A stretch of 43,938 nucleotides of DNA, taken from assembly GCA_900128395.1 (NCBI GenBank), contig LT649295.1, positions 1 to 43,938 on the forward strand, given 5' to 3'. The notes beneath the pieces were generated by a model. It had not been told where the DNA came from. It ran no database searches and saw only the letters and a list, made by a program, of their open reading frames with translations. Source of the stretch: Stramenopiles sp. TOSAG23-2 (Eukaryota). Shown here piece by piece: positions 17,651-38,742 of the stretch. Made by a program: the position numbers and the translations under genes. Position 1 is the first letter of the stretch. Each line of letters starts with the position of its first letter.

Positions 17651-20600
17651 ATGAAAAATTACTTCAATAATGGTATGCCAACGTCAATGATAATAATATC
17701 TGTAATGATGTTTTATTTTACCTCCATTATTACCAACAGTATTCTTATGGTTGCTGCTGCAAATCCAACAGCTAATTTCGTTTTGCCAAATCGTGGTTCT
17801 ATTACGGGTGGAGGTTATATAAATATCTACGGAAAGGATCTATTGCCGTCAAAGGATAAAAAAGGTGGAGCATTATTTGATGCAGGAATAAAAGCAAAAT
17901 GGGGTGTTGGCCCAAATTCTTCCATTTCCTGTGACCCTATCAATTACCTATCAAACGATGGTAAAATTGTATGCGTTCCAAGTGCACTTGATAATAAATT
18001 GAATGGAAGAGAAATTTCTACGTTATCAAATTGCGATGGACGCCAATTGTATCTTAATGCACCACCACCCATGACATTATGGGTTGATAATGTTGGCGGC
18101 CCTTTACGCCACCCTAATTATCCTACAGCATCTACGTCGTTACTTGGTAAATGTGGTGGTGGTGGTGGAAAAAAAAATCGGATATGGCAATGTAGTCGTG
18201 AGATAATGATCGGATCGACACCAATACTTGCATCTGTTGTACCTCGTGCCGTTCATGCTGGGGATTTAATAACAGTATATGGCCAAACATGTTTTGGCGA
18301 TGATTTTCAATATATTAAAGATGAAAAAATATCATTAAAAAGTGATTTCTCAATGAGTGGGGAAGAAACCAGAGATCATTTTGGTTTAAAATCGGATATT
18401 ATACGAATACGAGTTGGAAAATATATATGTGAAACTAAAAATAGTGCTGGTCGATATTATCGATCGAACAAAGGACATGTAAAAGGACGATGTTCTTCTT
18501 TTTCAAGTTGGTTTCAATGCCGATTACCTGAAGGAATTGAACCTGGTAAATACCCAATACAATTTGAAACTGTTAATAATGGGCATTCCATTACAAGTAT
18601 AAGTGGATATGGTTTCAACATTAATAATGCTAGCGAAGCATTTTCGGTACAGGTATTGCCAAAATCAACGAAAAAAATATCCATTTTAAATATTACAAGT
18701 GTAGCAAATACAAATGTATTACGAGTACATGGAAAGCATTTAAATGAATCAAATGTGCAAATTAAATGGGGTGGTCAAAGTTGTACTAAAAATTCAATTA
18801 AATATAATGAAATTTTATGTACAAAAAGTACAAATACAGCATCAACGGGAAATAAATATTATTTAGGGCCTATTGCATGGTTGAGGGAAAAATATGTATT
18901 TTTCAAAGAGAGCGATATGGCATACGCTTTGGCTGGAGAGGCTTGGTCAACTGCAATTGAAGGCTTTAAAATGAATTCAAGGCCATCCCCTGGTGAAATA
19001 ATGGATAAATTAAGGACAGGAACATTAAAAACTGGATATGCTAAAATTCGCATTTCTAGTTTATTGCCTGGAAGCCACGCTGGAACACCGTGGGAGTACC
19101 AAAGCGAAAATCCAAGTATCGATTTGAAACAAACATATGGAAGACGCGGTGCAATTTTTCAACGTGTAAGTGGTATTTACAAGGCTACTCACAACGGTTA
19201 TCTTCGCATGGTATCAAGACATACGGCTGGTAATTTAATGACGGTAAGGGTATGTAATACGGTGAATCCTGATTTATGCTATGAAAATTCAGATAAAATA
19301 ATAATATCGGAAACATTACATTTTAATGATATATCTGTCAGAACTCCGTGGTTTCAAGTTGTAAAAGATAATTCATACTTAATTGAACTTTTAGTTAAAT
19401 ATAATCCCCAGCACAACAGAAAATGGGGTGGTTTTAATGTTGATTTTGATTTTTCATATAAAGGTAATGATAACGATGGAGAAACAGCACAAAGCAATGT
19501 AGGTTACACTGGCCCATATACACCAAGGCGAGCTAGAAATGCACAGTACGTGTTAAGAACATCTGGTATCGCTGCAGATACAATTACCATAGTAGTTCGT
19601 AAAGGGGAATCGAACATATTTGATTTAAGCTTAGCCAACGGCACGGTCCCTATTCCGGTACGTGGTGTGCGTTTTCCACCACGTTATTTTAGAAATATTA
19701 TACGTGACAGTTTGAAATGGGCAACATGCGATGAACTGCCTGCAAGATCAAAGAAAATGGAAGTCTTCAGGTATCACCAAATACACCCATTTGACGTTGA
19801 AGGTCGGTGGATAATGGCAAAAGATACAAATGCATTTATCACCAATTCGCTTCCTAAAAGTACGAAAGTTGGTGGTATATCAGGGGCATCGATCGATTAT
19901 TCCACGTCTTACTGTGGATCACTGAGTCAACATATTAACTTAAATGCTATTCCAGATGGCCGGGTTATTGTCCCACCGTTGTCTATTTCCGCGCACGGAA
20001 AAGATTACCCTTACTTGAATTTTGCATACAAGTTAACGCCAAATGCTCGAGTAACAATGTTGCTCCGGTTATACATGAGAAAAAGATTTTTCACATGTGC
20101 AGTGTTGTTGACCCATCCTGAGCCAGCTAATGGTGTGACTGCTCATCCAACTTGCATAAATCTGCAAAATCAAATTGTTGCTGATGGTGCATGGCATGAA
20201 TTGTCGTTCAACTGGAGAAGCTTGTTGACAAGCGAGAGTAATGCTTTCAATGCACTGTTCCCATCGATTAATACGGGCGTGCAATTAATGTCGATCGCGA
20301 TTGGAGCTCAAGTTCATCTAAGTTCGTGCCCATCAAAACAAGATAATGCAGATACACATAATGAAGGCAGCGGTTCGTTATCAGGTGAAATGTGGATTGA
20401 TGCCGTTTCAGTGACAAAATCTTCATATTCATTTAATCGACAAAAACGCACGGAAACTCAAATGGCGGGAATGGTAGAGGGAAAATCAGCAGTTACACAT
20501 ATTGACGTGGATACGCAAACAAATGCAGACAAAACCGAAGACAAAGTTACCATTAAATTGTATCGCACTGATCAATGTGTAACTTCTGCAAGCAGTGCTC

Positions 20601-23600
20601 CATCATTAAATGCGTTCAATCCTGTACTAACAGTGCCATACAGGAAGAACCGGATGTTGCCAAAACCTTCCATGTCATTTGTACCTCGTGATACGAGCAG
20701 CAGTCGTGGTAGTGGTGGCACGATCAATTTTATATATGGTGGAATCACTCAATCAATTAGTAATGGCAATAATATTGCCAATGCAGTATCAACTGCTTTA
20801 GGTACCGTATTGGGAAAAGTTTCCAGCAAAAGTATTGTTGTGAAAAAAACATTTGATTTATTTGATATGTGTGGTACCATAGCACATACAGTACAAATGA
20901 GCCATGCTTCTAATATCGAGAATCCACAAATTTCACTATTTGGAACTAGAGGTGGCGTTACTGCGCATGCCATGTCATGGTCTTCAAGAAACGACAAGAT
21001 CAACTTGGCTTCTCCTCAGACAGCCGTTGGTATGTCTTTATCTGTTCAAGTTGATGGAAATGGTGGTGCTGTTATTGGTAACGATGTTGGGGGGGTAGCA
21101 GAATTAGTTGCAAAGGATGAAGTATCCGCTAATGCAGGTTATGTACGTCTTGGCGGTAGTGCCCAAGCAATAAATGTTCGCGTGCAGCATGAACGGGGTG
21201 AAATGCAAACAGCGGTAGTGGAGGATGAAGCAGGCTTTCCTATCCCATGTACTTCAAATGCAGAAGAAGATTACGATGAGACTGAAAATTTTGTTGAAGG
21301 TGCCTTTAGTGGTGATGTTCAGTGTGCATTAGCCATTGAAGAAGAAGAAAACAAGGATGCAAATTTTGGCAAGAATGGCCAAACTCGACGTCGTCTACGA
21401 CATCAAGGTTTGGATACTAAAGACATAAATGATCATTATGATGATGATGATGATGATGTTAAAATAACTTCAAATACTTTACATTTCCCAGGTGAAGATA
21501 CATGGGCAGCGCGCCCCACAATTACAGGAGAGCATCCCTTATTAATTCCAAAAGACCAATTACACAATTTAAATGTCGCAGTACCATTGTTACAGCGAAA
21601 GTACAAATATGGAGAAGTGGTGACTGGAGTTGTTGAAAAGCATTTAAAACAAGAAATGTTACGACGACGAGCATTATCAGGAGATGAAGAAGAAGTAAAT
21701 ACTAATAAACCATCTACCGATAGTGTATACGAGCTGCCACCAGGAAAAGGTAATTTCAATGACCCTTCAACATGGGGAGGAAACCCTGTACCAACTAAAG
21801 ATACACACGATATTGTGTATGTTCCAGCAGGTTTTAATTTAACACTAGACACGGATGCATATATTCGTGTATGGATCATTGAAGGGCGGCTTGATTTTGC
21901 CACAAATAAAGACATACACATGGAGGGTGAATTTATTGTTGTCAATGGAAACGATGCGCATTTTACAATTGGAGAGCCAAATGATCCATATCCAAAGCAG
22001 GCAACTATAACAATGCATGGGCATTGGCGTTCATTAGGTTTACCAAAATTTGGAGTGAAAGTTATAGCGATGACAAGTGGCAAAATGACGTTTTATGGGA
22101 AAGAAGTGGAGCCATGGTCACTTTTACATGCGACCGTGAATGCAGAGGAAAATATTATATACGTACAAGGTGATTTGAGAACGAAAGGCTGGGTTCCCAA
22201 TGCAAGACTTCTCGTTTCATCGACTGGATATGGAACTGAAAGAAATTGCCGTATAGATAGAAAAGATAAATGCCAAACTGAAGAAGTTCAAGTACAATCT
22301 ATAACCATTGTATCGCCTGGGAATGTAATGAAGGTAACACTGAAAAATCCTTTATCGTACACACATTTAGGCGAATCAATAGCAATACCAGGAGCGGAAA
22401 ACGGAGAGACTGTGGAGCGAAGGGCAACAGTAGCTTTGCTTGATAGAAATATAAATGTTAAGGGAACAGATGTAGAAGGATTTGGTGCCCAAACAATGAT
22501 GTTAAGTGGCCAAATGGTCTTAGATTACGTTGAATTTGGACCATTCGTTGGGCAAGCATTTCAATTAGGAAGATACGCAGTGCATTTTCACACTCCGAAC
22601 GAACCACTATTTAAAAATGGTTTACAAACCAGTAATGATCCGAAAATGCAAGGTTCCCATCAAGCATTAAGTCGCGTAAGGGGCTGTGCTATTCATGGAA
22701 GTAACAATCGCGCTATAGCGGTTCATGGATGTCACTTTTTACCAGTCGAACGAAATATTGCGTATAATATAATGGGCCATGCGATGTTTATTGAAGATGG
22801 TATTGAGCAACATAATATTTTGAAAGAAAATGTTGTAATGATGGTGCACCAAGCATGGTCATTGTTAAATACAGACACAACGCCGGCTTGTTTTTGGATT
22901 TCAAATTCTAATAATAGATTTATACGTAATCGTGCAATAGGTTCAACTCATCATGGATATTGGTTTGATCCACCAGGCGGCCCGACTGGACCATCATCAG
23001 GAAGAAAGATCGTTATCACTGAATTCGACAAAGAAATATTCTATTATGACGAATATACTAAGGATAGTTCTGGTAATCCATGGAGTTTTCCAGGTCAAAC
23101 AACAACTAAATACTGCGTCGATAAAAAATATTGCATTAATCTAGAGGAAGTTGTCAAAACAAGATCAGCTCCACTTCTCCAATTTGATAATAATACTGCT
23201 AGCTCAAATGGAGAGCATGGGGTATGGATAGACAAGATTGATTATAAGATATTTAAAAAGCCGAATCCAAAATCAAGGGAAGTATACATGCGGAGAAATA
23301 TGTACATGAACAATGTTTTGGCTTTCAATAACAGAAAGGAAGGAATCGGCGTTGTGATGGGCGTTGGACACTTACAAATTCTCGATGCAATATGCATGGG
23401 CAATGGTGTAAATATTGGCTACATGAAAATGAGTGCGAGTGGATGGGCAACAGCAGAAAATAATTGGCAAGGTCATTTAATTGAGCGGGCTTTAATACGC
23501 GGAGACCCGGGGAGGAGAACGATGGGAATCGGATTACCGCATGGTGCTTGGCTCACTGTCAAAGATACATTATTTAGCAGATATATTAAGGATCTTCCTA

Positions 23601-26600
23601 TCCATCACTGTTTGATTTGTGGAGGGGGTAAGGGTGGCATGGAAATTAGATTTTTAGGGACAAGATTCGTCGAATCGCCAAAGCTGCCACGATTACAATT
23701 CGATGGTTATTGGGGAAGCAATATTATATATGATATGGATGGAAAATTAACAAATACATCAAAACCAACTTGGGCACATTCGGTAAGTGGGGCAGCAACA
23801 TTATTCGATGGCAATTCACCACTGGGGCATTTTCCACCAGAATATTGCCAGTTTAGTAAAATGGTTGATGGTGTAATATGCGATGATCGGGTGTCCATGC
23901 GAGAAGTACAATTTAGGATGATTCTTCCAATGGCTTGGATACCAATAAGACTCCAAACGGGGCCCAAACAAGTGTCTTTACCTGTACCGTACTATAACTA
24001 CGATTCGCAGGGGCGGAGATACAATTGGCATATGACAGTAGTTGTGGTAAAAACTGCAGACGCAGTTCCAATCGTTCACAACATGACATTTTTAATGCAA
24101 CCATGGGAAGTAGATGACCCCGACTCTTGGTTAGGTGAAGTTCGTGAGATGCGACCCAATGAATGGACTATTCTACGTATTCCTACTCTTCGAAATCCTT
24201 GGAAATGGAAATTTGGTAAACATGCAAGTGATCTCTCTACAAATGATTACAAACAATCCACTTATACGTATAATAAAACTGCAGCACCACTTACCTATAC
24301 AGGATTTGTGCACGGCCAATACAGCTATATCCCTGTCAAAGATGTAAAAGATTTTAATGTAATACCAGATCCGGGAATATTAGATGTTTTAATATCTGGA
24401 AAATCGCTTTTAGATAGTGCAGCGAATACAGCTAGTTTTTCAAACGTACCATGGTTTAGGAGTTGGGCGCCAAACGAATACTGGACACGGTATGATGGAA
24501 AATACAATGCCTACCCAATTTGCAATACTGGTGGTGGTTGTTCCGGAGTAACTCAATTGGGTTTCGGTATGAAGCGAACAAATTGTGCTCCAGGAGATTC
24601 CGTGCGATGTTTACCAATGGGTAAGCCTGCTAATTGCTTTTCAGATGCGCCATTTCCTGAGGGTGCGAAAGTGAAACGGACGTTTAAATGGTGCGATACA
24701 ATACCTGGTGAATGGTCTCCTCCAAAATTTGGAGATGATGTTCTAATAAAAGTAGGGTGGACGGTCATTTTGGACGATACATGTTTAGAAACGGAGATTG
24801 TAAGACATTTAGACGTTTATGGCAGTTTATTGCTTCGTGATCCTGGTGCTGGAAAAACTGTAAAATTGAGAGCACAAACGATCCATGTGGCAGCTGGAAA
24901 GGGTTACCTGGAAGCTGGTACTACTACGTTACCAATATCAAATGGAAATGTCCGACTTGAATTGAATGGTAATCGTTACAGCAATCCAAGATATGGGTAT
25001 GGACTCGAGACTAAATATATTGCAGTCTTAGGTAGAATAAGTTTAGTTGGGAAATCCTTAGGAGACCACAATCAAACCACTTGGGGTACGTTACAAGCAA
25101 ATGCAATGAAAGGTGAAACACAATTGAAGATGGAATCATACATTTTTGATGCATGGAAGGTAGATGATGAGATTATGCTCGGTGGTGGGCACATGGAAGA
25201 TGGCAATACTGGCTTTGATTCCGAGGATCGTTGCAAAATCACGTCAGTGACAAAAGTATCAAAACATACTGTAATTGGATGTGAGGAACCTTTTAAAAAT
25301 GATCATAGTGGGCCAAATAATAAAGGTGATATGACGTTTAGAGGGGCACCGGTAACACTTATACATTCAACCAATCACCGCGTCCATGTTGTAGGAATGG
25401 AAGACGATACAAAGGCCAATTCAGTGCAACAATATGGTGTAACACTTCAAGTTTTAGCTACAAAGAAAGGGCCAATGGGAAAAATTGGAAGAAAAGCCAT
25501 TAAAAACAATGCAATTGACCCAGAATCAGCTCGCACACGAGAAGCATTATCAGCTGCAGATTATGTACCGCCAAAAGAGTGCGAAAAAAAACAAGGTGAT
25601 GTTATTGTGATGAACACTGGATTTACACATTGTGGCCAACGAGGTGCACAAGCATGTTTAGCTGTTCGCCCAGGATTTCGAGGCGAATTTAATGTTGATG
25701 CACTTGTTAAACAAGGTATTGCTTCTGTAGCTATGATTAAACATTCCACATTTTCCGATGCTTATTTTACAGGAATTGTAGTTACGGCAAGCGGGGTTAT
25801 TGTCGAAGATAATGCCGTTACTAATACTTATAATGGTGGTTTAAGTATATCTGGATCAAACAACAAAGTGATAAACAACGCTGCTATTAAAATATTTAAT
25901 GACATGTACAGCATGTTTCATGACATGGGGGCAGTAGGTATGGCTTTAAAAGGAAACGGTATATGGAAGAACAATGCTGTTTCTTTGAGCCAATACACTG
26001 GCTTTCAATTAGGTGGAAGGCCGTGTGGAGTTGAAGACAAGTTATCCGAGGCAAGTGGATTTTTGGTTTATTGGGGAGGTCAAGTTGGGGTAGCTCTTAT
26101 GGGTGGTGAGGAAATTGGGTATCCACGCGAACCTGCAGAGGCATACCCGGAAACCGCAAAATGCCGTGAATGGCGAGATATAGAGGTTCAAGGGGCAAAT
26201 ATGTTTGGTGTTCAATCTAGCTCTCATAAAAACAAGTGCGTTCGATTAAATAGATTGGCATTATGGGATACCGGCCTTGGGGTCTCCTTATGGTTATCAA
26301 ACGGTGATTCTGGTCGTGGTTCACGATCAAACTCAGGTGCATTTGCAGAGATTGCAGATTCTACAATAGTTGGTTCCAACTCGAGATGCAGAAACGATGG
26401 AATAGCATTTCCAAATTTTTATGCGGGCACAAAACCATATCGTCCAAGCCAAGGTGTTGAAACCCCATCAAGGTATGGTGGGTCGATCATAAAGAATGTT
26501 AAATTTGTTGATTTTGGTACTTGCAACAACGGCAAAGGCCAGAACTACGCCATGGTCAACAACATGGCGCGTGCAAGATACGCATACGTTTACCACGACG

Positions 26601-28759
26601 TTGCAAATAGTGTGGAAATTTCAGGGTTATCCTTCGAAAATACCCCAGAAGATAATAAACTCAAGATGCTCCCACCACCAAAGGGTAGAATTGGTAATAT
26701 GAAGTGGGGATGTGCACAGATTTACTGTGACGGAGATCGAAGTTTGTTCATCGTTGATAAAGATGGGTCATTGCTTGGCAACGAGGAAACAGGAACATTA
26801 GTTCCGTTTAATGAATTAGGTTGGAAAGAGAAGCTAACGTACGTCGATGCATTAGGCCGAGAAACAATGGAATCGTTGATTCCTTACACAGCACAATGGC
26901 GGGTAGATGGTAGTAGAATTGTTCCATTGCAAGGAGCTGACAAATTGTACGATGAAGCAGGAATTTTACGCGAAGGGTGTACCTTTCAAGACGCTTGGCA
27001 AGCATATAAATGTCCAAATGCAGAACATCGCCAAATAGTGTTTGAATCCCTGGATAGGGATCACAAAATGCGCCGTTTGTCCCCAACGTCAGTATTAACT
27101 CGATTAAATGATAAACGATACATGGCTTTGTACACTGGCCCTGGTCGGTATAAAATCGAGTGGAGTGGGGCTATTAAACGAAGCGTAACATTATGGGTAA
27201 CAGGTCATAAAGGGGCAACGCATGAAGTGCATCATACGAGCACAAATCCTGGTATTCAACGGGTCGGGATGTCTGGAGCAACAATGAACGACGCGGTGCA
27301 CATAAAATTGTACTATGGAGTGGCAAATAATGTAGATTTATACGTAAACGAAGAACTTGTTCCACCATTGGCCAAAGTTACATTTGAAAATCCAGATGGG
27401 CCAGATTTGAGCAACCGTGGCACTTTAAGTGACCAACCCCATGGTGCAAACTATTACGATCGTTTAAATGGTTATATGGAATTTGTATTACGAGGTCCAC
27501 AACCTGTCGTCATCCGCATATCCAATATGATTGTATTGACAGGAACGATAACCGTAACCGAGGATGAATTTTTCGTACCTGGTCTTCTTGGTTTAACGAG
27601 AAATATTGCCTTGTTATTGGGAATCGATGAAAGTCGAATTGCAGTTGCTGGGGTTGGTGATTATAAAGATGCAAAAGAAAAAGCAAGTGTCGGCCATAAC
27701 CGAAGACGCTTAGCAAACGAGCCGGTAACGTTGGACTTTGTCATTACAGAAACCAAACGTGGTGAATTGTCTCAAAACACAAATGGAGAGACATCTACTA
27801 GTGCAGAAGAAGCATTGATGGCTGAATCTGGCAAAGAGTTAAATAATTTTGGCAAGCAATTAATTGACACACCAGAGGCAGAGCTTACAAAGAACACACA
27901 GGTCCAAATTGTTCAATCATTTAAATTGACACAGGAGGCGAGTGTTCCAACGCCTGGTTGGTATGGGTGCGAAGTGAAAGCGTTCAAAGACGGCATTTGC
28001 GATTGTAACTGTGGTCGTTGGGATCCAGATTGCGATGATAGCGATACAAACCAAGATGCAGAAGTTGATCCGCGAGGATGCCCTTCAAGTATTATAGGAA
28101 ATCTTACACATCATGTAGAAGCGTTACGTGAATTTTGTGTCAATTATAAAGACTCAGTCATTTGCGAAAATGTTGAAGAATTTGATTTGTGTGAAGAATG
28201 GCCTTGCCAAGATAAAAATGTATCTGTGGAGCTTAGAAATGAAGTCGCTCGAGCGACATCTTTTGCATCGGTATGCAAAAAAACCAATCCATCAGATCCA
28301 TTGCCTTCAGAAGGATACGTCAACGATGGTAAATGTGCTTTAATTTTCAAATTTGATGCTGTTGAAAAGGAGGAAATTATTGATGAAAAGAAAAATGAAT
28401 CAATACTTTCCAACCTAGTACCAAAAACAATTGGAGGTTGGATCGTTTTTTTGATTGTTGTTGGAATTATAGTGTTTCTCATAGCTGTAACAGTGTGGTA
28501 TTTTAAAGTCTTCAAGCCGAAGAAAAAGAAAGAAGTGAAGAGTGTATTTAGTGCATTTCAAGCGGGAAGACGTGCACAGAAAAATGGTTCCGAGACACAG
28601 ATTGATGATACAGAAATAAATAGTAATGGGATTGAAATGATGACTTCATCAAATAAAAAGAATTTAGCAGTTGGTGGCACATCATCTGCGGTTGTGGCCT
28701 TAGTTATGGATGGTGATGATAATGAAAGAAACAAAGAAAAGGTTGTCGAAACTATATGA
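17651..28759 (+). CDS. Fibrocystin-L (PKHD1L1/PKHD1)-like giant type I membrane protein with IPT/TIG, PA14-like, two G8 domains, PbH1 beta-helices and a TM segment
   Basis: Signal peptide; IPT motif PNRGSITGGGYINIYG; G8 #1 NDPSTWGG...YVPAGFNLTLD...FGVKVI; beta-helix motifs GQAFQLGRYAVHFH, NNRAIAVHG, GHAMFIEDGIE, LLNTDTTPACFWI; G8 #2 PKFGDDVLIKVGWTVILD; TM IGGWIVFLIVVGIIVFLIAVTVWYF followed by KVFKPKKKK. Confidence 0.9.
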   Translation: MKNYFNNGMPTSMIIISVMMFYFTSIITNSILMVAAANPTANFVLPNRGSITGGGYINIYGKDLLPSKDKKGGALFDAGIKAKWGVGPNSSISCDPINYLSNDGKIVCVPSALDNKLNGREISTLSNCDGRQLYLNAPPPMTLWVDNVGGPLRHPNYPTASTSLLGKCGGGGGKKNRIWQCSREIMIGSTPILASVVPRAVHAGDLITVYGQTCFGDDFQYIKDEKISLKSDFSMSGEETRDHFGLKSDIIRIRVGKYICETKNSAGRYYRSNKGHVKGRCSSFSSWFQCRLPEGIEPGKYPIQFETVNNGHSITSISGYGFNINNASEAFSVQVLPKSTKKISILNITSVANTNVLRVHGKHLNESNVQIKWGGQSCTKNSIKYNEILCTKSTNTASTGNKYYLGPIAWLREKYVFFKESDMAYALAGEAWSTAIEGFKMNSRPSPGEIMDKLRTGTLKTGYAKIRISSLLPGSHAGTPWEYQSENPSIDLKQTYGRRGAIFQRVSGIYKATHNGYLRMVSRHTAGNLMTVRVCNTVNPDLCYENSDKIIISETLHFNDISVRTPWFQVVKDNSYLIELLVKYNPQHNRKWGGFNVDFDFSYKGNDNDGETAQSNVGYTGPYTPRRARNAQYVLRTSGIAADTITIVVRKGESNIFDLSLANGTVPIPVRGVRFPPRYFRNIIRDSLKWATCDELPARSKKMEVFRYHQIHPFDVEGRWIMAKDTNAFITNSLPKSTKVGGISGASIDYSTSYCGSLSQHINLNAIPDGRVIVPPLSISAHGKDYPYLNFAYKLTPNARVTMLLRLYMRKRFFTCAVLLTHPEPANGVTAHPTCINLQNQIVADGAWHELSFNWRSLLTSESNAFNALFPSINTGVQLMSIAIGAQVHLSSCPSKQDNADTHNEGSGSLSGEMWIDAVSVTKSSYSFNRQKRTETQMAGMVEGKSAVTHIDVDTQTNADKTEDKVTIKLYRTDQCVTSASSAPSLNAFNPVLTVPYRKNRMLPKPSMSFVPRDTSSSRGSGGTINFIYGGITQSISNGNNIANAVSTALGTVLGKVSSKSIVVKKTFDLFDMCGTIAHTVQMSHASNIENPQISLFGTRGGVTAHAMSWSSRNDKINLASPQTAVGMSLSVQVDGNGGAVIGNDVGGVAELVAKDEVSANAGYVRLGGSAQAINVRVQHERGEMQTAVVEDEAGFPIPCTSNAEEDYDETENFVEGAFSGDVQCALAIEEEENKDANFGKNGQTRRRLRHQGLDTKDINDHYDDDDDDVKITSNTLHFPGEDTWAARPTITGEHPLLIPKDQLHNLNVAVPLLQRKYKYGEVVTGVVEKHLKQEMLRRRALSGDEEEVNTNKPSTDSVYELPPGKGNFNDPSTWGGNPVPTKDTHDIVYVPAGFNLTLDTDAYIRVWIIEGRLDFATNKDIHMEGEFIVVNGNDAHFTIGEPNDPYPKQATITMHGHWRSLGLPKFGVKVIAMTSGKMTFYGKEVEPWSLLHATVNAEENIIYVQGDLRTKGWVPNARLLVSSTGYGTERNCRIDRKDKCQTEEVQVQSITIVSPGNVMKVTLKNPLSYTHLGESIAIPGAENGETVERRATVALLDRNINVKGTDVEGFGAQTMMLSGQMVLDYVEFGPFVGQAFQLGRYAVHFHTPNEPLFKNGLQTSNDPKMQGSHQALSRVRGCAIHGSNNRAIAVHGCHFLPVERNIAYNIMGHAMFIEDGIEQHNILKENVVMMVHQAWSLLNTDTTPACFWISNSNNRFIRNRAIGSTHHGYWFDPPGGPTGPSSGRKIVITEFDKEIFYYDEYTKDSSGNPWSFPGQTTTKYCVDKKYCINLEEVVKTRSAPLLQFDNNTASSNGEHGVWIDKIDYKIFKKPNPKSREVYMRRNMYMNNVLAFNNRKEGIGVVMGVGHLQILDAICMGNGVNIGYMKMSASGWATAENNWQGHLIERALIRGDPGRRTMGIGLPHGAWLTVKDTLFSRYIKDLPIHHCLICGGGKGGMEIRFLGTRFVESPKLPRLQFDGYWGSNIIYDMDGKLTNTSKPTWAHSVSGAATLFDGNSPLGHFPPEYCQFSKMVDGVICDDRVSMREVQFRMILPMAWIPIRLQTGPKQVSLPVPYYNYDSQGRRYNWHMTVVVVKTADAVPIVHNMTFLMQPWEVDDPDSWLGEVREMRPNEWTILRIPTLRNPWKWKFGKHASDLSTNDYKQSTYTYNKTAAPLTYTGFVHGQYSYIPVKDVKDFNVIPDPGILDVLISGKSLLDSAANTASFSNVPWFRSWAPNEYWTRYDGKYNAYPICNTGGGCSGVTQLGFGMKRTNCAPGDSVRCLPMGKPANCFSDAPFPEGAKVKRTFKWCDTIPGEWSPPKFGDDVLIKVGWTVILDDTCLETEIVRHLDVYGSLLLRDPGAGKTVKLRAQTIHVAAGKGYLEAGTTTLPISNGNVRLELNGNRYSNPRYGYGLETKYIAVLGRISLVGKSLGDHNQTTWGTLQANAMKGETQLKMESYIFDAWKVDDEIMLGGGHMEDGNTGFDSEDRCKITSVTKVSKHTVIGCEEPFKNDHSGPNNKGDMTFRGAPVTLIHSTNHRVHVVGMEDDTKANSVQQYGVTLQVLATKKGPMGKIGRKAIKNNAIDPESARTREALSAADYVPPKECEKKQGDVIVMNTGFTHCGQRGAQACLAVRPGFRGEFNVDALVKQGIASVAMIKHSTFSDAYFTGIVVTASGVIVEDNAVTNTYNGGLSISGSNNKVINNAAIKIFNDMYSMFHDMGAVGMALKGNGIWKNNAVSLSQYTGFQLGGRPCGVEDKLSEASGFLVYWGGQVGVALMGGEEIGYPREPAEAYPETAKCREWRDIEVQGANMFGVQSSSHKNKCVRLNRLALWDTGLGVSLWLSNGDSGRGSRSNSGAFAEIADSTIVGSNSRCRNDGIAFPNFYAGTKPYRPSQGVETPSRYGGSIIKNVKFVDFGTCNNGKGQNYAMVNNMARARYAYVYHDVANSVEISGLSFENTPEDNKLKMLPPPKGRIGNMKWGCAQIYCDGDRSLFIVDKDGSLLGNEETGTLVPFNELGWKEKLTYVDALGRETMESLIPYTAQWRVDGSRIVPLQGADKLYDEAGILREGCTFQDAWQAYKCPNAEHRQIVFESLDRDHKMRRLSPTSVLTRLNDKRYMALYTGPGRYKIEWSGAIKRSVTLWVTGHKGATHEVHHTSTNPGIQRVGMSGATMNDAVHIKLYYGVANNVDLYVNEELVPPLAKVTFENPDGPDLSNRGTLSDQPHGANYYDRLNGYMEFVLRGPQPVVIRISNMIVLTGTITVTEDEFFVPGLLGLTRNIALLLGIDESRIAVAGVGDYKDAKEKASVGHNRRRLANEPVTLDFVITETKRGELSQNTNGETSTSAEEALMAESGKELNNFGKQLIDTPEAELTKNTQVQIVQSFKLTQEASVPTPGWYGCEVKAFKDGICDCNCGRWDPDCDDSDTNQDAEVDPRGCPSSIIGNLTHHVEALREFCVNYKDSVICENVEEFDLCEEWPCQDKNVSVELRNEVARATSFASVCKKTNPSDPLPSEGYVNDGKCALIFKFDAVEKEEIIDEKKNESILSNLVPKTIGGWIVFLIVVGIIVFLIAVTVWYFKVFKPKKKKEVKSVFSAFQAGRRAQKNGSETQIDDTEINSNGIEMMTSSNKKNLAVGGTSSAVVALVMDGDDNERNKEKVVETI

Positions 28760-31888: not shown

Positions 31889-32512
31889 TCATTCACTACT
31901 CTCGCTCCTCTCTGGATGCACTTTCTTACCACGGCAACATTGCATCAACCCAAACACAATTAACATTCCAATCCATATAAACATCCAAGAATACCTAATA
32001 ATATCCTCTTGAAGCAATCCTTGCCCATTTAAAAACGTATAAACTGACAATACCACTACAAATATATACGATGCTTTGGTCCAGTGGTTTATTGACCATA
32101 AGTATTGACATGGAGATTTTAGATGGATATACAATGCCAATAACAAGTTGCATAATACGACAATAATTAATCGAATCACAGATGATTCCGAAAACACTAC
32201 AGTTGCTGTACCAATTGCCATATCTATACCAATTTGCCATAATTGAAACGATTGAGTCCAACGAACACTAGATGCTTTTGACTTGAAAAATAAATAGACA
32301 GTTTCCTCATCTGATTTAGATTCCATAAATTGGCTACCAATTACAGTAGCAGTTGGAACTAAAAAAATCAAAAGCCCTAATGCTATAGATGCATATAATT
32401 GATGTGTCGAACCCCAACAGATTACGTTGTCATGTACTGCCATGGTAGCAACCACCGTTGTGCTAGTGGACATTACTGCCGTACTATTATTGAACATTGT
32501 CGTACTATTATT
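31889..32512 (-). pseudogene. C-terminal multi-TM fragment lacking its own N-terminus, similar in type to the gene at 3..983
   Basis: ICWG-x2-HQLYASIALGLLIFLVP plus ~5 further hydrophobic helices. The reading frame begins at the junction with the TPR ORF. Confidence 0.55.
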
Positions 32513-33014
32513 TCTCACCACCTTTATCACCTAATTGTGATGCAATTTCTAAAGATTTATGATAATATTTCAATGCATCTTGATAATTTCCAAGATTGCG
32601 ATGGGCTTCACCAATGTTGGAGTATGCTCTACCCTCACCACCTTTATCACCTAATTGTAATGCAATTTCTAAATCTTTATGATAATATTTCAATGCATCT
32701 TGATAATTTCCAAGACGGCCATGGGCTACACCAATGTTTCCGTATGCCATACCCTCACCACCTTTATCACCTAATTGTAATGCAATTTCTAAATGTTTAT
32801 GTTGATATTTCAATGCATCTTGATAATTTCCAAGCTTGCGATGGGCTTCACCAATGTTGCAGTATGCACTACCCTCCCAAGATGTATTTCCTGTTTCTTG
32901 AGCATACGATAAAAAAATCGTAAAATCTTTTAAAGCTCCTTTATAATCACCTTGATCGTCCTTTGCCTGTGCATTGTCAAACAATGCCCATGCTTCATCT
33001 TCCGTTAACGACAT
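32508..33014 (-). CDS. TPR protein (TTC28/GPSM-like 40-aa repeats), truncated mid-array
   Basis: Three near-identical 120-bp units (EG-x-AY-x-NIG-x-AH-x2-LGNYQDALKY-x-HK-x-LEIA-x-QLGDKGG). The ORF stops abruptly at GGEK*. Confidence 0.75.
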   Translation of the reverse strand: MSLTEDEAWALFDNAQAKDDQGDYKGALKDFTIFLSYAQETGNTSWEGSAYCNIGEAHRKLGNYQDALKYQHKHLEIALQLGDKGGEGMAYGNIGVAHGRLGNYQDALKYYHKDLEIALQLGDKGGEGRAYSNIGEAHRNLGNYQDALKYYHKSLEIASQLGDKGGEK

Positions 33015-33054
33015 GTTTCTTTTATAATACTAATCATACAATATATCTATATCC

Positions 33055-33110
33055 CACACACATCTACACACATCTACACACATCTACACACATCTACACA
33101 CATCTATACA
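33055..33110. repeat. 10-bp minisatellite (CATCTACACA) x ~5
   Basis: Directly visible just upstream of the TPR start. Confidence 0.9.
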
Positions 33111-33512
33111 CAAACAAATGGTAAAACAGATTAATATATGACATATGACAATACCATACACACAGCACCACCACACACACACACTATTTTTAGATCCATC
33201 CACATTTTTTGGGCAAAAAAAGAAATGAAGAAAAGAGGACTATCTACGTAATAGATTAACATAAACATAGCATTGATTATTAGTATCAAATAGGACACTA
33301 TATAACTACATTTATATCATATACTCTAACACACAATTTGACTAAATAAATGTATAACGATTTTAGCCATTTTTGGGCCGCGTGAATGGACGAGGAAGTT
33401 TTAAGAGCACAGATTAATACCAATATAGCATTGTTAATCCATACCAAATAGGCAGAAAATGACATGGAAAACAATACTATATTTAATACTACATAATGGT
33501 AATAAGTACAAA

Positions 33513-34022
33513 CTAATGCACACTCTTTCTTCTGCCACGTTTCCTTGGTGTTTTACTAACAGCAATATTCTTCTTCTTCTTCTTCTTCTTCAATCTCTCA
33601 CTTTCATTTTCATCTCCTCTTTGCTCCTTTTCTACGCCCTGATCAATATCATCCTCCTCCCCGTCTTCTTTATCAATCGCAATACCGTCTTCTTCCACAC
33701 CTTTATCATCATCATCACCATCATCCCCACTGCCACCAACGTTACTTTCACTCTTCTTCTTCTTCTTTGTCTCCATCTTACCTTTATTTTTATTATTACC
33801 ACCTCCTATTTTCTGAGTATCTCTTATTTTTTGTTGATTTTTCCCTTTATCTACCCTAAGATCAACAGCTTTTTTTTCTGGATATGCATTTTTTGCATTC
33901 ATTAGCAAACTTGGTTCTAATGCAAGCCATCGATATAATTCTCTTTTCGTTAAATAATCTAAAATTTGATCTCGAACTACTTTACAACAATGTGTAGTAC
34001 ATTTTACACATTGTAAAAGCAC
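33513..34022 (-). CDS. Hypothetical Lys/Asp/Glu-rich protein or gene fragment; possible short first exon 34125-34102 and 67-nt intron 34101-34035
   Basis: 169-aa ORF with a GTG start and NLS-like basic tracts. A GT..AG intron would give MKRHLSDQ|EYQDVLLQC in frame. No family recognised. Confidence 0.35.
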   Translation of the reverse strand: MLLQCVKCTTHCCKVVRDQILDYLTKRELYRWLALEPSLLMNAKNAYPEKKAVDLRVDKGKNQQKIRDTQKIGGGNNKNKGKMETKKKKKSESNVGGSGDDGDDDDKGVEEDGIAIDKEDGEEDDIDQGVEKEQRGDENESERLKKKKKKKNIAVSKTPRKRGRRKSVH

Positions 34023-34137
34023 ATCTTGATATTCCTATAATATCCTTAAATAAAACAAACAACTTAAGCACGCTTTCAAGTATAACATGATACTACTAAA
34101 CCTGATCGGAAAGATGCCTTTTCATCTTCACAATCTT

Positions 34138-34319
34138 TGTTACTTTATTCTGATGTGTATATGCTAATAAATACCTTATATATTGAAGACGAATGGAGAA
34201 TGACCCATTTCATATATATACCAAAAAATTCCAGTTTTACTAACTCGTGAAGGAGTAAAGCAGGATAAACCTTTTGCTATGGCCAGCTTTGATCGATTCC
34301 TCTTCTAAATAACGTAATA
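34138..34319 (+). repeat. 5' LTR (182 bp)
   Basis: Identical to 34617-34798 except the penultimate base (GTAATA vs GTAACA). Confidence 0.95.
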
Positions 34320-34616
34320 GTTTATCAGACCCAGTCTCTAAATGAGCTAATCAAAAATAGTTTACGTAGAAGTAATAAAGAATCAATATATATTAAAGTC
34401 TAAGAAGCCTTAAAAATCCTTCACAAACATGATCCAAAAAGTAGATCAGCCCCGTACCAGAAGCAGTACATTAAACCAAAAATGGTCCAAGGCAGACCTT
34501 AAAATCACATAACTAAAATTAGTTTAAGGGGTTGAAATAACTCTTTGCATAACATCACAATAAGAAATAGACAAATTTCGGAAAACGAAAAATCTCATCA
34601 AAAATTTGAGGGGTTG

Positions 34617-34798
34617 TGTTACTTTATTCTGATGTGTATATGCTAATAAATACCTTATATATTGAAGACGAATGGAGAATGACCCATTTCATATATATAC
34701 CAAAAAATTCCAGTTTTACTAACTCGTGAAGGAGTAAAGCAGGATAAACCTTTTGCTATGGCCAGCTTTGATCGATTCCTCTTCTAAATAACGTAACA
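34617..34798 (+). repeat. 3' LTR (182 bp)
   Basis: TG...CA ends with a 6-bp terminal inverted repeat, followed by the TSD ATCTT. Confidence 0.95.
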
Positions 34799-34987
34799 AT
34801 CTTTGCGTCACCAAAAGGGCCTCACCAACCATTTACATATAATATATATATATATATATCAATGTTGGGCATCGTATTTATATCAATTTTCTGTATTTTA
34901 TGAAAATTTACTCAGAAACGAACACGCAAGACACATATTATTATTGTTATTACTGTTTTTACGAAAATTTTTTAAATATTGTTTTCT

Positions 34988-35026
<39 letters not shown>

Positions 35027-35061
35027 TTTTTTTTGGTATTAACATTTTAAGCAATATAACA

Positions 35062-36297
35062 ATGAAAAACAACCCATTTCAACAAATGAAACAAGCTATA
35101 CTTGATAAATTAAACGCTTCAATATATATTGATAAAAGTCCAAAAGGTTTTTTAGATGCACCTATTGTTGATTTAGTCAACTTGATCAATTCACATAAAG
35201 ATTATGTTACGACATCCTCTTGCAGTGGCAGGATTGTTCTTTTTGCTACTTTAGAGAAAAAATGGATTTTAGCTAAACATGAAAAAGTTGATTTTGAAGA
35301 TGTATTAAATATTTTAAAAACATATCATCAAGAAACAGATTTAACAATACATAACAAAGACGCTGCTAATTTTCCAATTTTATTAAAACATGAACCTTTG
35401 ATCCTTCATGTACAATGTAGTAATTTGAAATCAGCTGAATTTTTATTGCAAATTGCATTGCAAGCTGGATATCGAGAGTCAGGTATTGTATTAGGTAAGA
35501 AAAAAATTATGGTAGCAATACGTACTATGGCTGGTATTATGGAAGTACCACTTGGACAGCATTTTTTTGGCGATGGTTTTATTATTGATGATGTGAATAA
35601 CAATAATAACAATAATTATTTTCTTGATTTTTTACGACAATTAATAGAAGAAGCATGTAATCGATTTGATGAAAATGCGAAACGTACAAATATATTTATG
35701 AATGTTTTAAAAACTGAATTATTTAACAAAGCAAATAATCTTACCATTAATAATAATACGGAAGATGATAATATTATTTTATTACATGATAATTCTGCTT
35801 TATCATATGAATTTGAAAACGAATTTTTAAACATGAATCGTTTTAAACGATGGTCCCATTCAACTGATTCATCAATTGATAATAAATTTATAATAACGTT
35901 TGGCGGCTATGGTATTGCAAAAGATGGACATGTTGGCCGTTTAAATGATTTCATATTTGGTTATATGGATACAAAAAATAAATGTTTAAAATGGAATGTT
36001 TTCGATGAAATAAAAAGCAATACATCATCAGTTATATGGCCTTGTGCAAGAGTTAGGCATACGTTGAGCTTGTTGCCACCAATTGTTTACCAAAAAAAAT
36101 CCACTACCACCACCACTACTAGTGCATTATCGTCGTATAAATTGCCATGTATTTTATTTGGTGGTCGTTCAAGCCCGGAAAAACCTTTTAATGAAGTATA
36201 TTTAGGTATGTTTTCCATGAAAAATAATAAGTTGCTAAACTACACAATTCTAAAAACGGACATGAATGGAAAAAAACATCTAGCGGTTATCAATTAC

Positions 36298-36332
<35 letters not shown>

Positions 36333-38742
36333 AAACAAATTTGATTTAAAGTGGGATTTATTGGAAATGAAATCATTAAAACAAGAATTTCCTAGAAAAC
36401 GATGGAGTCACAGTGCTTCTGTGCTTTGTTGTAGTACTTCATCCTCATTGTCACAAACATCAAACAATAATACGTATCTAAAGTATTGTGATATTATTAA
36501 TACTAATAATGATGATATCGGCGAAACTTATACCATTTGTATATATGGTGGTAGAGACAATAATAATGTATTTGATGATATTTTCTTCTTAAATGTGTAT
36601 CATAGTTCTTATACGAAGGATAACGATAATGATGAAGATGATTCATCAACATTCGGTTGGTGGGAACCAATGACAAATAAAATAAGTGGAAAGTCACCTG
36701 GTCCACGTTTTTCACATACATCAACATTAATCGGGCATAAACATGGAAACACCTCTTTTTCCAATAAATCCATGGTTATTGCTGGAGGGTATACATCTAC
36801 TAATAATGCAAATTTAGCGTTTGCCAATACCTCGATTTATATTCTTAATTTTGATACGATGGCATGGTCTTCCTTGTTTTCCTCTGAAGCAACTGGGGCC
36901 ACAACATTATTGTCTCGTTATTCACATACAGCGTCTGTGTTAGAAGATGACAAGATACTTTTATTTGGTGGTATAAGACATGGTGGTCATAACAATATGT
37001 CAGTAATTGATTTGAAAAAAAAATGTATTTATAATATAAATGATGGCAATGTTGAATCTACATTGGTACGGCATACGATGTCAAAATTATTAATTGGAAC
37101 AAAAGAGGATGGTAAAAAGGATTTATTTGCATTTGTAAAAATAGGTGGTGGTTCACAAGTAAGTTCATTTGGGCAAGCATGGAATGAACCTGTATTATCT
37201 ATGATAAATATTAATAAAATTATGAATTATGAACCAAGACACATCATTTATGAAAAGAATAATCGCAACATAGAAAACATTAGCATGAACGACGTTGTTC
37301 TTGAAAAACAAATTGATATAAGTGAAGCCAGCAGTCATTATGGTGAAATGCAGAAACAAAACAATAATGTAATAGAAACTAACAATATATCAGCAATTGT
37401 CGTCAATCCAAAAAATATTAAAACTGTCAAAGTGGCTTTAGAAAAAATCAAAGGGTTGGATTTAAATTATCGTATAGGTTCGGCAAATAGTTGTAAAGAA
37501 TTGATAGATAGTAATGAAAAATATACCGGAATGAAACTACTACCTTTAACAGCAACATGTAGTGATACGTTGGCAAAGGATTATATCATTAGCAATATTA
37601 CTACTAATAATAATAATAATGGAAATAAGGTTCATAATAATAATCTAAATGAATATTTAGGGACAAAAGTACATGAGTTATTTAGCGAAAACAAATGTTT
37701 TTTTTTATATAAAAAAATCCCAGCAAATATATTCCCAAAAACCAAAGTACCAAGAAATATAAAAAAAATGCAAAATAAGAGCATTGTAAACGTATTACGT
37801 AGAGTATTGGAAAAACACGGGGTGAAAGATATTATACCTCAATTATTAGCATTGGTTCCATTAAAATTTGAAAAACTCGGCCATGATGTGACTGTTTTAC
37901 CGAAAGAAATGTTTCAAGGGAAAAAAGTTGAAGACAATAATAGTAGCGATAATAGATCTGTTTCATGGAAAGAATCATTATCTGAAAAATGTTTATTGGA
38001 GGCTTACAAAAAGATTGCATCTATTCAAAAAACAAGTCGAATATTATGTAGATATGAAATAGATACAGGAATTATGAGGAAAAGTTGTGCCAACCTATTG
38101 TATGATAAAAATAACTTAGGCAGTTGGTTGAAAATTAAGGAAAATGGAGTTGAATATAACTTTGATTGCAAACAAGTCATGTTTTGTACCGGAAATGGAA
38201 CGGAAAAGCGCCGTATGGGTAGTAAAGGTCATGGGGAAATCATTGTTGATCTATATGCAGGTATAGGATATTTTACATTGCCTTTCCTCGTCCATGGTAA
38301 TGCTAAGTATGTACATGCATGTGAAATCAATCCTGATTCAGTAAAGGCATTGAAAAAAAATTTAATAGCAAATGGCGTAGAAGATAGATGCACCGTTTAT
38401 TTAGGGGATAATATTGTATCTGCTAAGAAATTAATTGGCATTGCTAATCGCGTTAATTTAGGTTTGTTACCAGACAGTGTCAAAGGATATGAAATTGCAG
38501 TGGATTGTTTGAATTTAAATAGTGGTGGTATTTTACATGTACATGGAAATTGTTTATCGGTAGAAAGAGAGAAATGGGGTAAACAAGTCGAACAAGATAT
38601 TTTCAATATCATACAAGAAAAAGGTGGTGCAATTCAAGAATCATTTCAATCGGTTCAATGCATACATGTGGAACGTGTTAAATCATATGCACCAAGAGTT
38701 GACCACGTTGTTGCAGATATTGAAATACGTTGTCGTCAGTAG
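35062..38742 (+). CDS. TYW3: tRNA wybutosine-synthesizing protein 2/3/4 fusion (TYW3 - Kelch/TYW4C - TYW2)
   Basis: TYW3 motifs DKSPKG-x-LD and YVTTSSCSGRI, G(Y)RESG. Kelch repeats with FGGR, YGGR, PRFSHT and RYSHTA. TYW2/Trm12 motifs ENGVEY...VMFCTGNGTEK, DLYAGIGYF, RVNLGLLP and VKSYAPRVDHVVAD. Confidence 0.93.

Follow-up and report, generated by a model that had tools for sequence, protein, structure and literature searches.

The window considered here, by which we mean the whole 43,938-nt stretch of DNA analysed (contig LT649295.1, Stramenopiles sp. TOSAG23-2), contains at positions 34133-34803 a real, recently inserted, non-coding miniature long terminal repeat (LTR) retrotransposon of 661 bp together with its target-site duplication. 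Because elements encoding a Ty1/copia reverse transcriptase share its LTR end, its primer binding site (PBS) and, in two cases, the tract that precedes the LTR, we regard it as very probably a parasite of the terminal-repeat retrotransposon in miniature (TRIM) type, living on a Ty1/copia lineage of marine microbial eukaryotes. Held with only slightly less confidence, the best overall explanation is a non-autonomous TRIM of the copia lineage, for which priming by half of a tRNA-Ile is probable.

The element consists of two direct repeats of 182 bp each and a 297-bp interior (182 + 297 + 182 = 661 bp), which agrees with the LTR length of about 100-250 bp and the total below about 1 kb that are usual for TRIMs. 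Its parts are the following.

34133..34137 (no strand): target-site duplication, 5' copy, ATCTT, identical to 34799-34803; a single ATCTT stands in the empty-site contig of run X3 described below
34138..34319 (+): 5' LTR, 182 bp, TGTTAC...GTAATA, with a T at 34318 in this copy only
34320..34334 (+): primer binding site GTTTATCAGACCCAG; identical in the window and in the four metagenome loci L001-L004 described below; its complement fits tRNA positions 26-40
34320..34616 (+): non-coding interior, 297 bp; stop-free frames of at most 54 codons on both strands; tblastn with related gag/pol (E <= 0.01) found no remnants in the window
34606..34616 (+): candidate plus-strand primer tract TTGAGGGGTTG; also present, with TGTTAC after it, in L002 and L003
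34617..34798 (+): 3' LTR, 182 bp, TGTTAC...GTAACA
34799..34803 (no strand): target-site duplication, 3' copy, ATCTT, identical to 34133-34137

An earlier annotation made from the letters alone (first-pass annotation) had described two 182-bp LTRs with one mismatch, an ATCTT duplication and a 297-bp non-coding interior, and all of these were recovered when measured again. The duplication lies directly outside the LTRs and is perfect over 5 bp, for which the chance is about 1 in 1024. The sole mismatch between the LTRs falls at LTR position 181, T at 34318 versus C at 34797. Both LTRs begin with TGTTAC; the 3' LTR ends with GTAACA and the 5' LTR with GTAATA. The purine tract was confirmed in part, since the purine run GAGGGG is present within TTGAGGGGTTG directly before the 3' LTR, but does not abut it because TTG intervenes. 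The sequence after the 5' LTR lacks TGG, as had been stated. TG...CA ends and a 5-bp duplication, as found here, are characteristic of Ty1/copia elements, and TRIMs are recognized by a target-site duplication together with a PBS that follows the 5' LTR and a purine-rich tract that precedes the 3' LTR.

In classic plant TRIMs the PBS matches the 3' end of tRNA-Met. The window element resembles the class in its 182-bp LTRs, its 297-bp non-coding interior, its length of less than 1 kb, and its PBS, purine-rich tract and 5-bp duplication. It differs in its host, a marine microbial eukaryote, in a PBS of the apparent internal half-tRNA type and in a host copy number that is possibly one. It showed no sequence similarity to a named TRIM family, although no TRIM libraries were searched. 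TRIMs have been reported from plants, an ant, bivalves and a cestode (PMC4717578, PMC3532108, PMC6934838, PMC4558846). A literature search with the TRIM phrase and 'protist' returned no description of a protist TRIM.

The affiliation with copia was investigated by scanning metagenome contigs with a single exact pattern made up of the 15-nt PBS and the 6 LTR bases before it. Four contigs (L001-L004) contained it; the presence of the PBS in them is given by construction, since its 15 nt were required by the pattern. RVT_2, the Ty1/copia reverse transcriptase (RT) domain, was found in three of the four (L002, L003 and L004), which supports the copia derivation put forward in the first-pass annotation. 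All four loci contain one LTR and then the PBS, the usual collapsed assembly of an LTR element. A pol open reading frame (ORF) stands before the LTR in L002-L004, and ORFs follow the PBS in L002 and L003.

L001: LTR of 153 bp, start TGTTAC, tract TTTAGAGGGAG, no RVT_2 (1003-nt contig)
L002: LTR of 543 bp, start TGTTAC, tract TTGAGGGGTTG, RVT_2 with E = 2e-35
L003: LTR of 536 bp, start TGTTAC, tract TTGAGGGGTTG, RVT_2 with E = 5e-37
L004: TGTTAC start not found, the start being likely TGTTAG by eye, RVT_2 with E = 1.6e-42

The tract TTGAGGGGTTG followed by TGTTAC is identical in the window, L002 and L003, and the tract was absent from the search pattern. The RTs themselves are diverged, L003 and L002 being 45% identical and L004 being 29-30% identical to each of them. 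The LTR bodies of the four loci could not be aligned with those of the window element, so that, outside the pattern, only the LTR start and the preceding tract were common. L003 is a nearly complete autonomous Ty1/copia element, lying on the minus strand of a 5919-nt contig. In it, a 505-aa gag-like ORF without a Pfam match follows the PBS; after an in-frame stop and 36 nt there begins an ORF with a protease-like D-C-G-A-S motif (by eye), and the pol ORF of 1011 aa contains SH3_retrovirus (residues 165-241) before RVT_2 (494-721), which is the copia domain order. No match to the rve integrase core was reported in L003. Integrase before RT, together with RVT_2, was seen in these relatives that share the cis signals, and the window element encodes nothing. 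The pattern of LTR end and PBS had 0 matches in viral contigs.

Evidence on the locus itself came from public sequencing runs. Among the 22 runs listed, 20 share part of 33900-35050 and 3 share at least half of the sampled words; 6 of the 22, from 5 studies, are RNA libraries. The Logan contigs of four runs (X1, X9, X3 and X15) were aligned to 32800-36200; for the other 18, the shares of 0.32-0.92 are not taken to show which part of the stretch is present. Missing cover in X9, X3 or X15 is not evidence of absence; moreover, contigs do not reveal strand, transcript ends or copy number, and RNA libraries can contain DNA. The contigs of X1, the best-matching run, span all four junctions of the element:

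33257-34167: X1 contig, flank to LTR (contig alignment)
34288-34646: X1 contig, LTR to interior to LTR (contig alignment)
34623-34796: X1 contig, LTR body (contig alignment)
34767-34981: X1 contig, LTR to flank (contig alignment)

The depth in X1 was 281.9 over the LTR and 142.4 over the interior, a ratio of about two, as expected for two LTRs per interior. The first-pass annotation had named an assembly duplication as the event that would undo its reading, and the X1 contigs and depths support both LTRs instead, although X1 is possibly the window's own source sample and its support is then not independent.

The unoccupied target site was found in X3, a seawater metagenome. A 335-nt contig (depth 4.4) matches 34013-34128 and resumes at 34797, the shorter arm of the joint measuring 34 letters; it contains both flanks and one ATCTT without the element, and has one CA fewer in the CACA run before the site. 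This contig is an unoccupied target site in a relative, of the kind with a single ATCTT that had been proposed as a check. An empty site with a single ATCTT implies that the element was recently mobile, and the earlier description of a complete, young element is supported. The target site reads CA-ATCTT-TG (34131-34139 and 34797-34805), so that the bases outside the duplication mimic the CA and TG ends of the LTRs, by chance or through a target preference, and the joint in the empty site is ambiguous by 2 nt.

Near-identical copies of the element occur elsewhere. X9, which has another organism label and belongs to the same study (P1) as X1, contains a 509-nt contig over 34292-34798 with 5 differences in 507 nt. 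In the flanks it matches only in part and at lower similarity, for example with 9 differing letters and 10 gaps over 33269-33513, and 68% of its aligned material runs on into unlike sequence. X15, a metatranscriptome, contains a 505-nt contig (depth 36.8) over 34290-34798 with a 4-nt deletion, while the other 25 of 30 bins stood at depth 0. The copies in X9, X15 and X3 are about 99% identical to the element and are contigs without flanks. In X3, pieces of the element contain 2-nt and 4-nt deletions, each in part of the depth only, which implies that at least two variants are present. The junction of LTR end and PBS occurs in each of X9, X15 and X3, and that of the tract and the LTR start in X9 and X15 as well. 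Transcription and multi-copy status are both likely on this evidence.

The lengths of the X9 and X15 contigs deserve attention, because 509 and 505 nt equal LTR plus interior (479 and 475 nt) plus a 30-nt overlap, that is, a closed cycle without flanks in a 31-mer assembly graph. Such a cycle could be produced by an assembly artefact in the form of a falsely duplicated repeat, by a tandem or circular 479-bp unit, or by a circular-RNA element like the retrozymes, which are TRIM-like and yield circular RNAs (PMC5680766). The window element is like a retrozyme in being small, non-coding and bounded by LTRs and in the closed unit of LTR and interior seen in RNA libraries. However, any LTR-interior-LTR element, or any transcript of the form R-U5...U3-R (terminal repeat, unique 5' and unique 3' regions), will cycle if its flanks are thin, so that the cycles are no proof of circles or tandem arrays. 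The X1 contigs span both flank junctions, and the empty site, like the TG...CA ends and the 5-bp duplication, is a signature of integrase activity. Unlike in retrozymes, no hammerhead was found in the window LTRs: an Rfam scan of 34000-34900 (E <= 10) found no tRNA and neither a hammerhead nor any other ribozyme, and returned three chance matches to snoRNAs (E = 6.9-9). We consider an artefact, a tandem or circular unit or a retrozyme very improbable.

The PBS was compared among the window element and L001-L004. In this five-element alignment, identity comprises GTTTATCAGACCCAG, and T (34335) in four of the five, and then ends, which sets the PBS at 15-16 nt. A longer PBS of 28 nt, resembling tRNA positions 10-40 including the D arm, was rejected for the same reason. 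The complement of the PBS is CTGGGTCTGATAAAC. It was put to a geometry test for anticodon arms that asked for Y32, U33 and R37, for all visible stem pairs to be formed and for a 3' end at 39-41. Only a single register accommodates it, one that puts the 3' end at position 40 and GAT at 34-36; in this register the stem at 27-31 is TGGGT, the loop is C-U-GAU-A-A, and AC at 39-40 pairs with 31 and 30. This geometry suggests that the PBS is of the internal half-tRNA type and not of the 3'-CCA type, in agreement with the non-canonical, half-tRNA-like site without TGG that had been described earlier.

The first-pass annotation had further read the complement as an imperfect match to initiator tRNA-Met (iMet) with a GAT triplet. 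The triplet holds its place at 34-36, but iMet does not, because the complement contains no CAT and hence does not derive from the anticodon arm of an initiator or elongator tRNA-Met. An iMet fragment imperfectly matched by the PBS would agree with the position and general look of the PBS, in which it resembles the copia and Ty5 sites; both of these elements are documented to use a half of tRNAi-Met as primer (PMC5371799). Against it, the missing CAT would entail at least three mismatches, among them the anticodon, and five elements with RTs of 29-45% identity have the 15 nt without a change, which fits selection for an exact match. This primer is accordingly hardly credible. The likeness to copia and Ty5 (Hemivirus) is otherwise close: the PBS, without TGG, immediately follows the 5' LTR and complements an anticodon arm, and the 3' end of the primer would fall within the 3' strand of that arm's stem. 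The difference is that the anticodon triplet in the window is GAT and not CAT, which points to a different tRNA.

A tRNA-Ile(IAU) half, with a C of the PBS opposite inosine 34, is the primer that we favour, by a modest degree of confidence. The identity of the PBS in five diverged elements argues for an exact match to a real tRNA and not for an imperfect match to iMet. CTGATAA, the loop complement, equals the Ile loop except that G replaces I. In the inosine model, the C in GTTTAT-C-AGACCCAG would stand opposite I34, and the loop of the gene would be expected to read CTAATAA. To our knowledge, nuclear tRNA-Ile(GAU) is normally absent from eukaryotes, where Ile is decoded by IAU and UAU.

Priming of this type has been described in plants. 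Elements with half-tRNA (Met or Ile) sites made up about 2% of the plant elements analysed in one survey; in its Bianca copia lineage (260 elements), 92% had a half-tRNA-Ile PBS and 96% had 5-bp duplications, and the survey reports that A34 of the primer tRNA-Ile is edited to inosine, enabling pairing with the PBS (Neumann et al. 2019, PMC6317226). The window element is like Bianca, a plant Ty1/copia lineage of REXdb, in a PBS that can be read as the complement of half a tRNA-Ile with inosine 34 and in its 5-bp duplication. Its relative L003 adds gag and the rest of pol in separate ORFs, with the stop and 36 nt between them; GAG:_:PROT-INT-RT-RH is given as the prevailing organization in Bianca (PMC6317226). 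On the other hand, Bianca elements are autonomous, measure about 6 kb and occur in land plants, and the comparison concerns the type of priming as described. The half-tRNA-Ile site of Bianca may be the closest match in mechanism, with shared descent and convergence both possible.

Three other sources of the primer were considered together: a genuine tRNA-Ile(GAU) half, another small RNA, or no tRNA at all, with self-priming or a hairpin like that of GalEa. The complement literally reads GAT. A conserved hairpin site is described in fungal GalEa, and in FunCo1 a site matching an internal region of tRNA-Lys (PMC5445492). A hairpin CAGAC...GTCTG, or a shorter one, could be drawn by eye over the PBS in three of the five elements, but it is absent from the other two. 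For self-priming of the Tf1 type about 11 nt of complementarity are needed, and the stretch of LTR complementary to the PBS did not exceed 7 nt (6-7) in any of the five. The normal lack of tRNA-Ile(GAU) in eukaryotic nuclear genomes speaks against the genuine GAU half. When the inferred arm motif in its G form was sought in prokaryote genome contigs, 10 matches were obtained, about the number expected by chance for 18 bases, and none of the 10 lay inside a tRNA. Next to one of these matches (L007) an unrelated tRNA-Thr adjoins. In viral contigs, the G form had 0 matches and the A form 1, which is not a tRNA by ARAGORN. The prokaryote and viral collections contain no eukaryotic nuclear genomes and so are no evidence against a nuclear tRNA. 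For the PBS and arm strings, the full texts of papers yielded one irrelevant match, to a primer. We consider these alternatives possible, yet clearly less likely than the tRNA-Ile(IAU) half.

How the element moves can be proposed from what it has kept. As a non-autonomous TRIM, it would retain only the cis signals recognized by the proteins of its lineage, namely the TGTTAC...GTAACA ends, the PBS and the tract TTGAGGGGTTG. That diverged elements keep identical ends, PBS and tract makes the set found in the window what is expected of a non-autonomous parasite. A transcript running from LTR to LTR would be packaged and reverse-transcribed by gag and pol proteins acting in trans, and the integrase would insert the cDNA with a 5-bp duplication, here ATCTT. 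Minus-strand synthesis would start not from the 3' CCA but from the 5' part of a tRNA that is cleaved within the anticodon stem and ends at position 40. The element is probably mobilized in trans and probably transcribed, and the primer is probably the one named above.

Several observations weigh against the reading of a mobile TRIM with a half-tRNA-Ile primer, and they concern the partner, the number of copies and the primer. No element combining the LTR body of the window with gag-pol was found among the 4 scanned contigs. In place of the active autonomous partner implied by the first-pass annotation, metagenomes contain autonomous relatives that carry these cis signals, none of them with the window LTR body. 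As for copies, the interior depth in X1 (142) lies between the depths of the two flanks (270 and 67), and no extra junctions between LTR and flank are listed in X1. These depths, together with no extra junction, make a single copy possible, and the source organism may have just one. The empty site is a single low-depth contig of X3. The copies without flanks in X9, X15 and X3 are possibly the same locus in relatives, or possibly carry-over between libraries (X9 and X1 share study P1) or DNA in an RNA library. As for the primer, the fit of the PBS to an anticodon arm is only moderately unlikely by chance, the pass rate of background 15-mers of the window being 4.6% in the loose test and 0.3% in the strict test, and no tRNA genes were found in the window or in L001-L004.

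Part of these points would suit a different history, in which a full-length copia element lost its internal part in a single event and left a dead remnant, without any transposition in the miniature form. The window contains a single copy (blastn found no further copy of LTR or interior in its 43,938 nt), the depths and junctions in X1 fit one copy, and none of the 4 metagenome scan contigs is a copy of the miniature element. However, the duplication and the empty site show the insertion either of the 661-bp form or of a longer form that was later deleted exactly between the PBS and the tract. The 297-bp interior is about 99% identical in X9, whose flanks match poorly, and in the metatranscriptome X15; at least two of its indel variants exist in the metagenome X3; and it contains neither a protein nor a DNA remnant of related gag/pol. 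We therefore regard a deletion derivative as improbable, and we retain the interpretation of a TRIM.

The single LTR difference may have consequences for the copy in the window. Position 34318 is T in X1, where 0 of the 142.4 depth has another letter, and C in X9, X3 and X15, which makes the T private to the window copy. It turns the terminal CA of the 5' LTR (the U5 end) into TA. Because U5 would pass to progeny only via RNA from the 5' LTR, any offspring would inherit the T at 34318 in its two LTRs. TA would then take the place of the terminal CA normally needed by integrases, and the window copy may for this reason transpose poorly and be a poor source of new insertions. Families with non-canonical LTR ends exist, such as TARE1 of tomato (PMC3701649).

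TRIMs and half-tRNA priming are already known, and the general view of retroelements is unchanged by these results. They add a marine microbial eukaryote to the hosts of clean TRIMs, and a half-tRNA PBS that can be read as tRNA-Ile, now seen outside land plants and conserved across copia elements with RTs 29-45% identical. The age and spread of half-tRNA-Ile priming thereby become testable, and a polymorphic insertion that is seen in RNA libraries is a possible marker of, and handle on, active retrotransposition in uncultured plankton. A wider scenario is that a widespread copia lineage of marine protists, primed by a tRNA-Ile(IAU) half and either independent of Bianca or anciently shared with it, spawned a miniature parasite that is active in the ocean. 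We think this scenario conceivable but doubtful. If it were true, the parasite would be transcribed (6 RNA runs from 5 studies) and polymorphic in presence and absence, and the identity of about 99% between differently labelled organisms with poorly matching flanks would point to spread in the very recent past or to horizontal transfer. One-LTR circles, a by-product of ongoing reverse transcription, could then account for the closed 479-nt unit without flanks of a DNA run.

The surroundings of the element are consistent with a eukaryotic host. The window is AT-rich (23-44% G+C per kb) and contains long uninterrupted ORFs; its Pfam matches are eukaryote-like, including a TYW3-Kelch-TYW2 fusion, a G8/CEMIP protein and a protein kinase. 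The listed runs that share part of the stretch are mostly labelled as marine or seawater metagenomes. Taken together, the run labels and the Pfam matches fit a marine microbial eukaryote. The inter-ORF gap that contains the element measures 2.5 kb. The ATG (35062) of the TYW fusion follows 259 bp downstream of the element, in the same orientation, and the element could affect the expression of this wybutosine-synthesis fusion gene. The fusion (35062-38742, +) is an ORF of 1226 aa with TYW3, Kelch repeats and a TRM5/TYW2 methyltransferase, and has long poly-Asn runs. Just before its ATG, a 536-nt contig of X1 (depth 101.6) omits 34934-35060, a TA-repeat-rich segment of 127 bp; a length variant, an amplification effect or an assembly effect are all possible.

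Other observations concern the wider window. In X3 and in X9 alike, one contig runs from 35616 back to 33701, with 38 identical letters inserted at the joint, possibly through a shared rearrangement or a repeat elsewhere in relatives. A single ORF of 3702 aa (17651-28759, +) combines G8, CEMIP beta-helix and TIG domains. On the opposite strand, an ORF of 168 aa (32508-33014, -) consists of TPR-like repeats (GNYQDALKYYHK...LGDKGGEG), and just upstream of it, at 33046-33112, lies a 10-bp microsatellite ACACACATCT of about 5-6 units.

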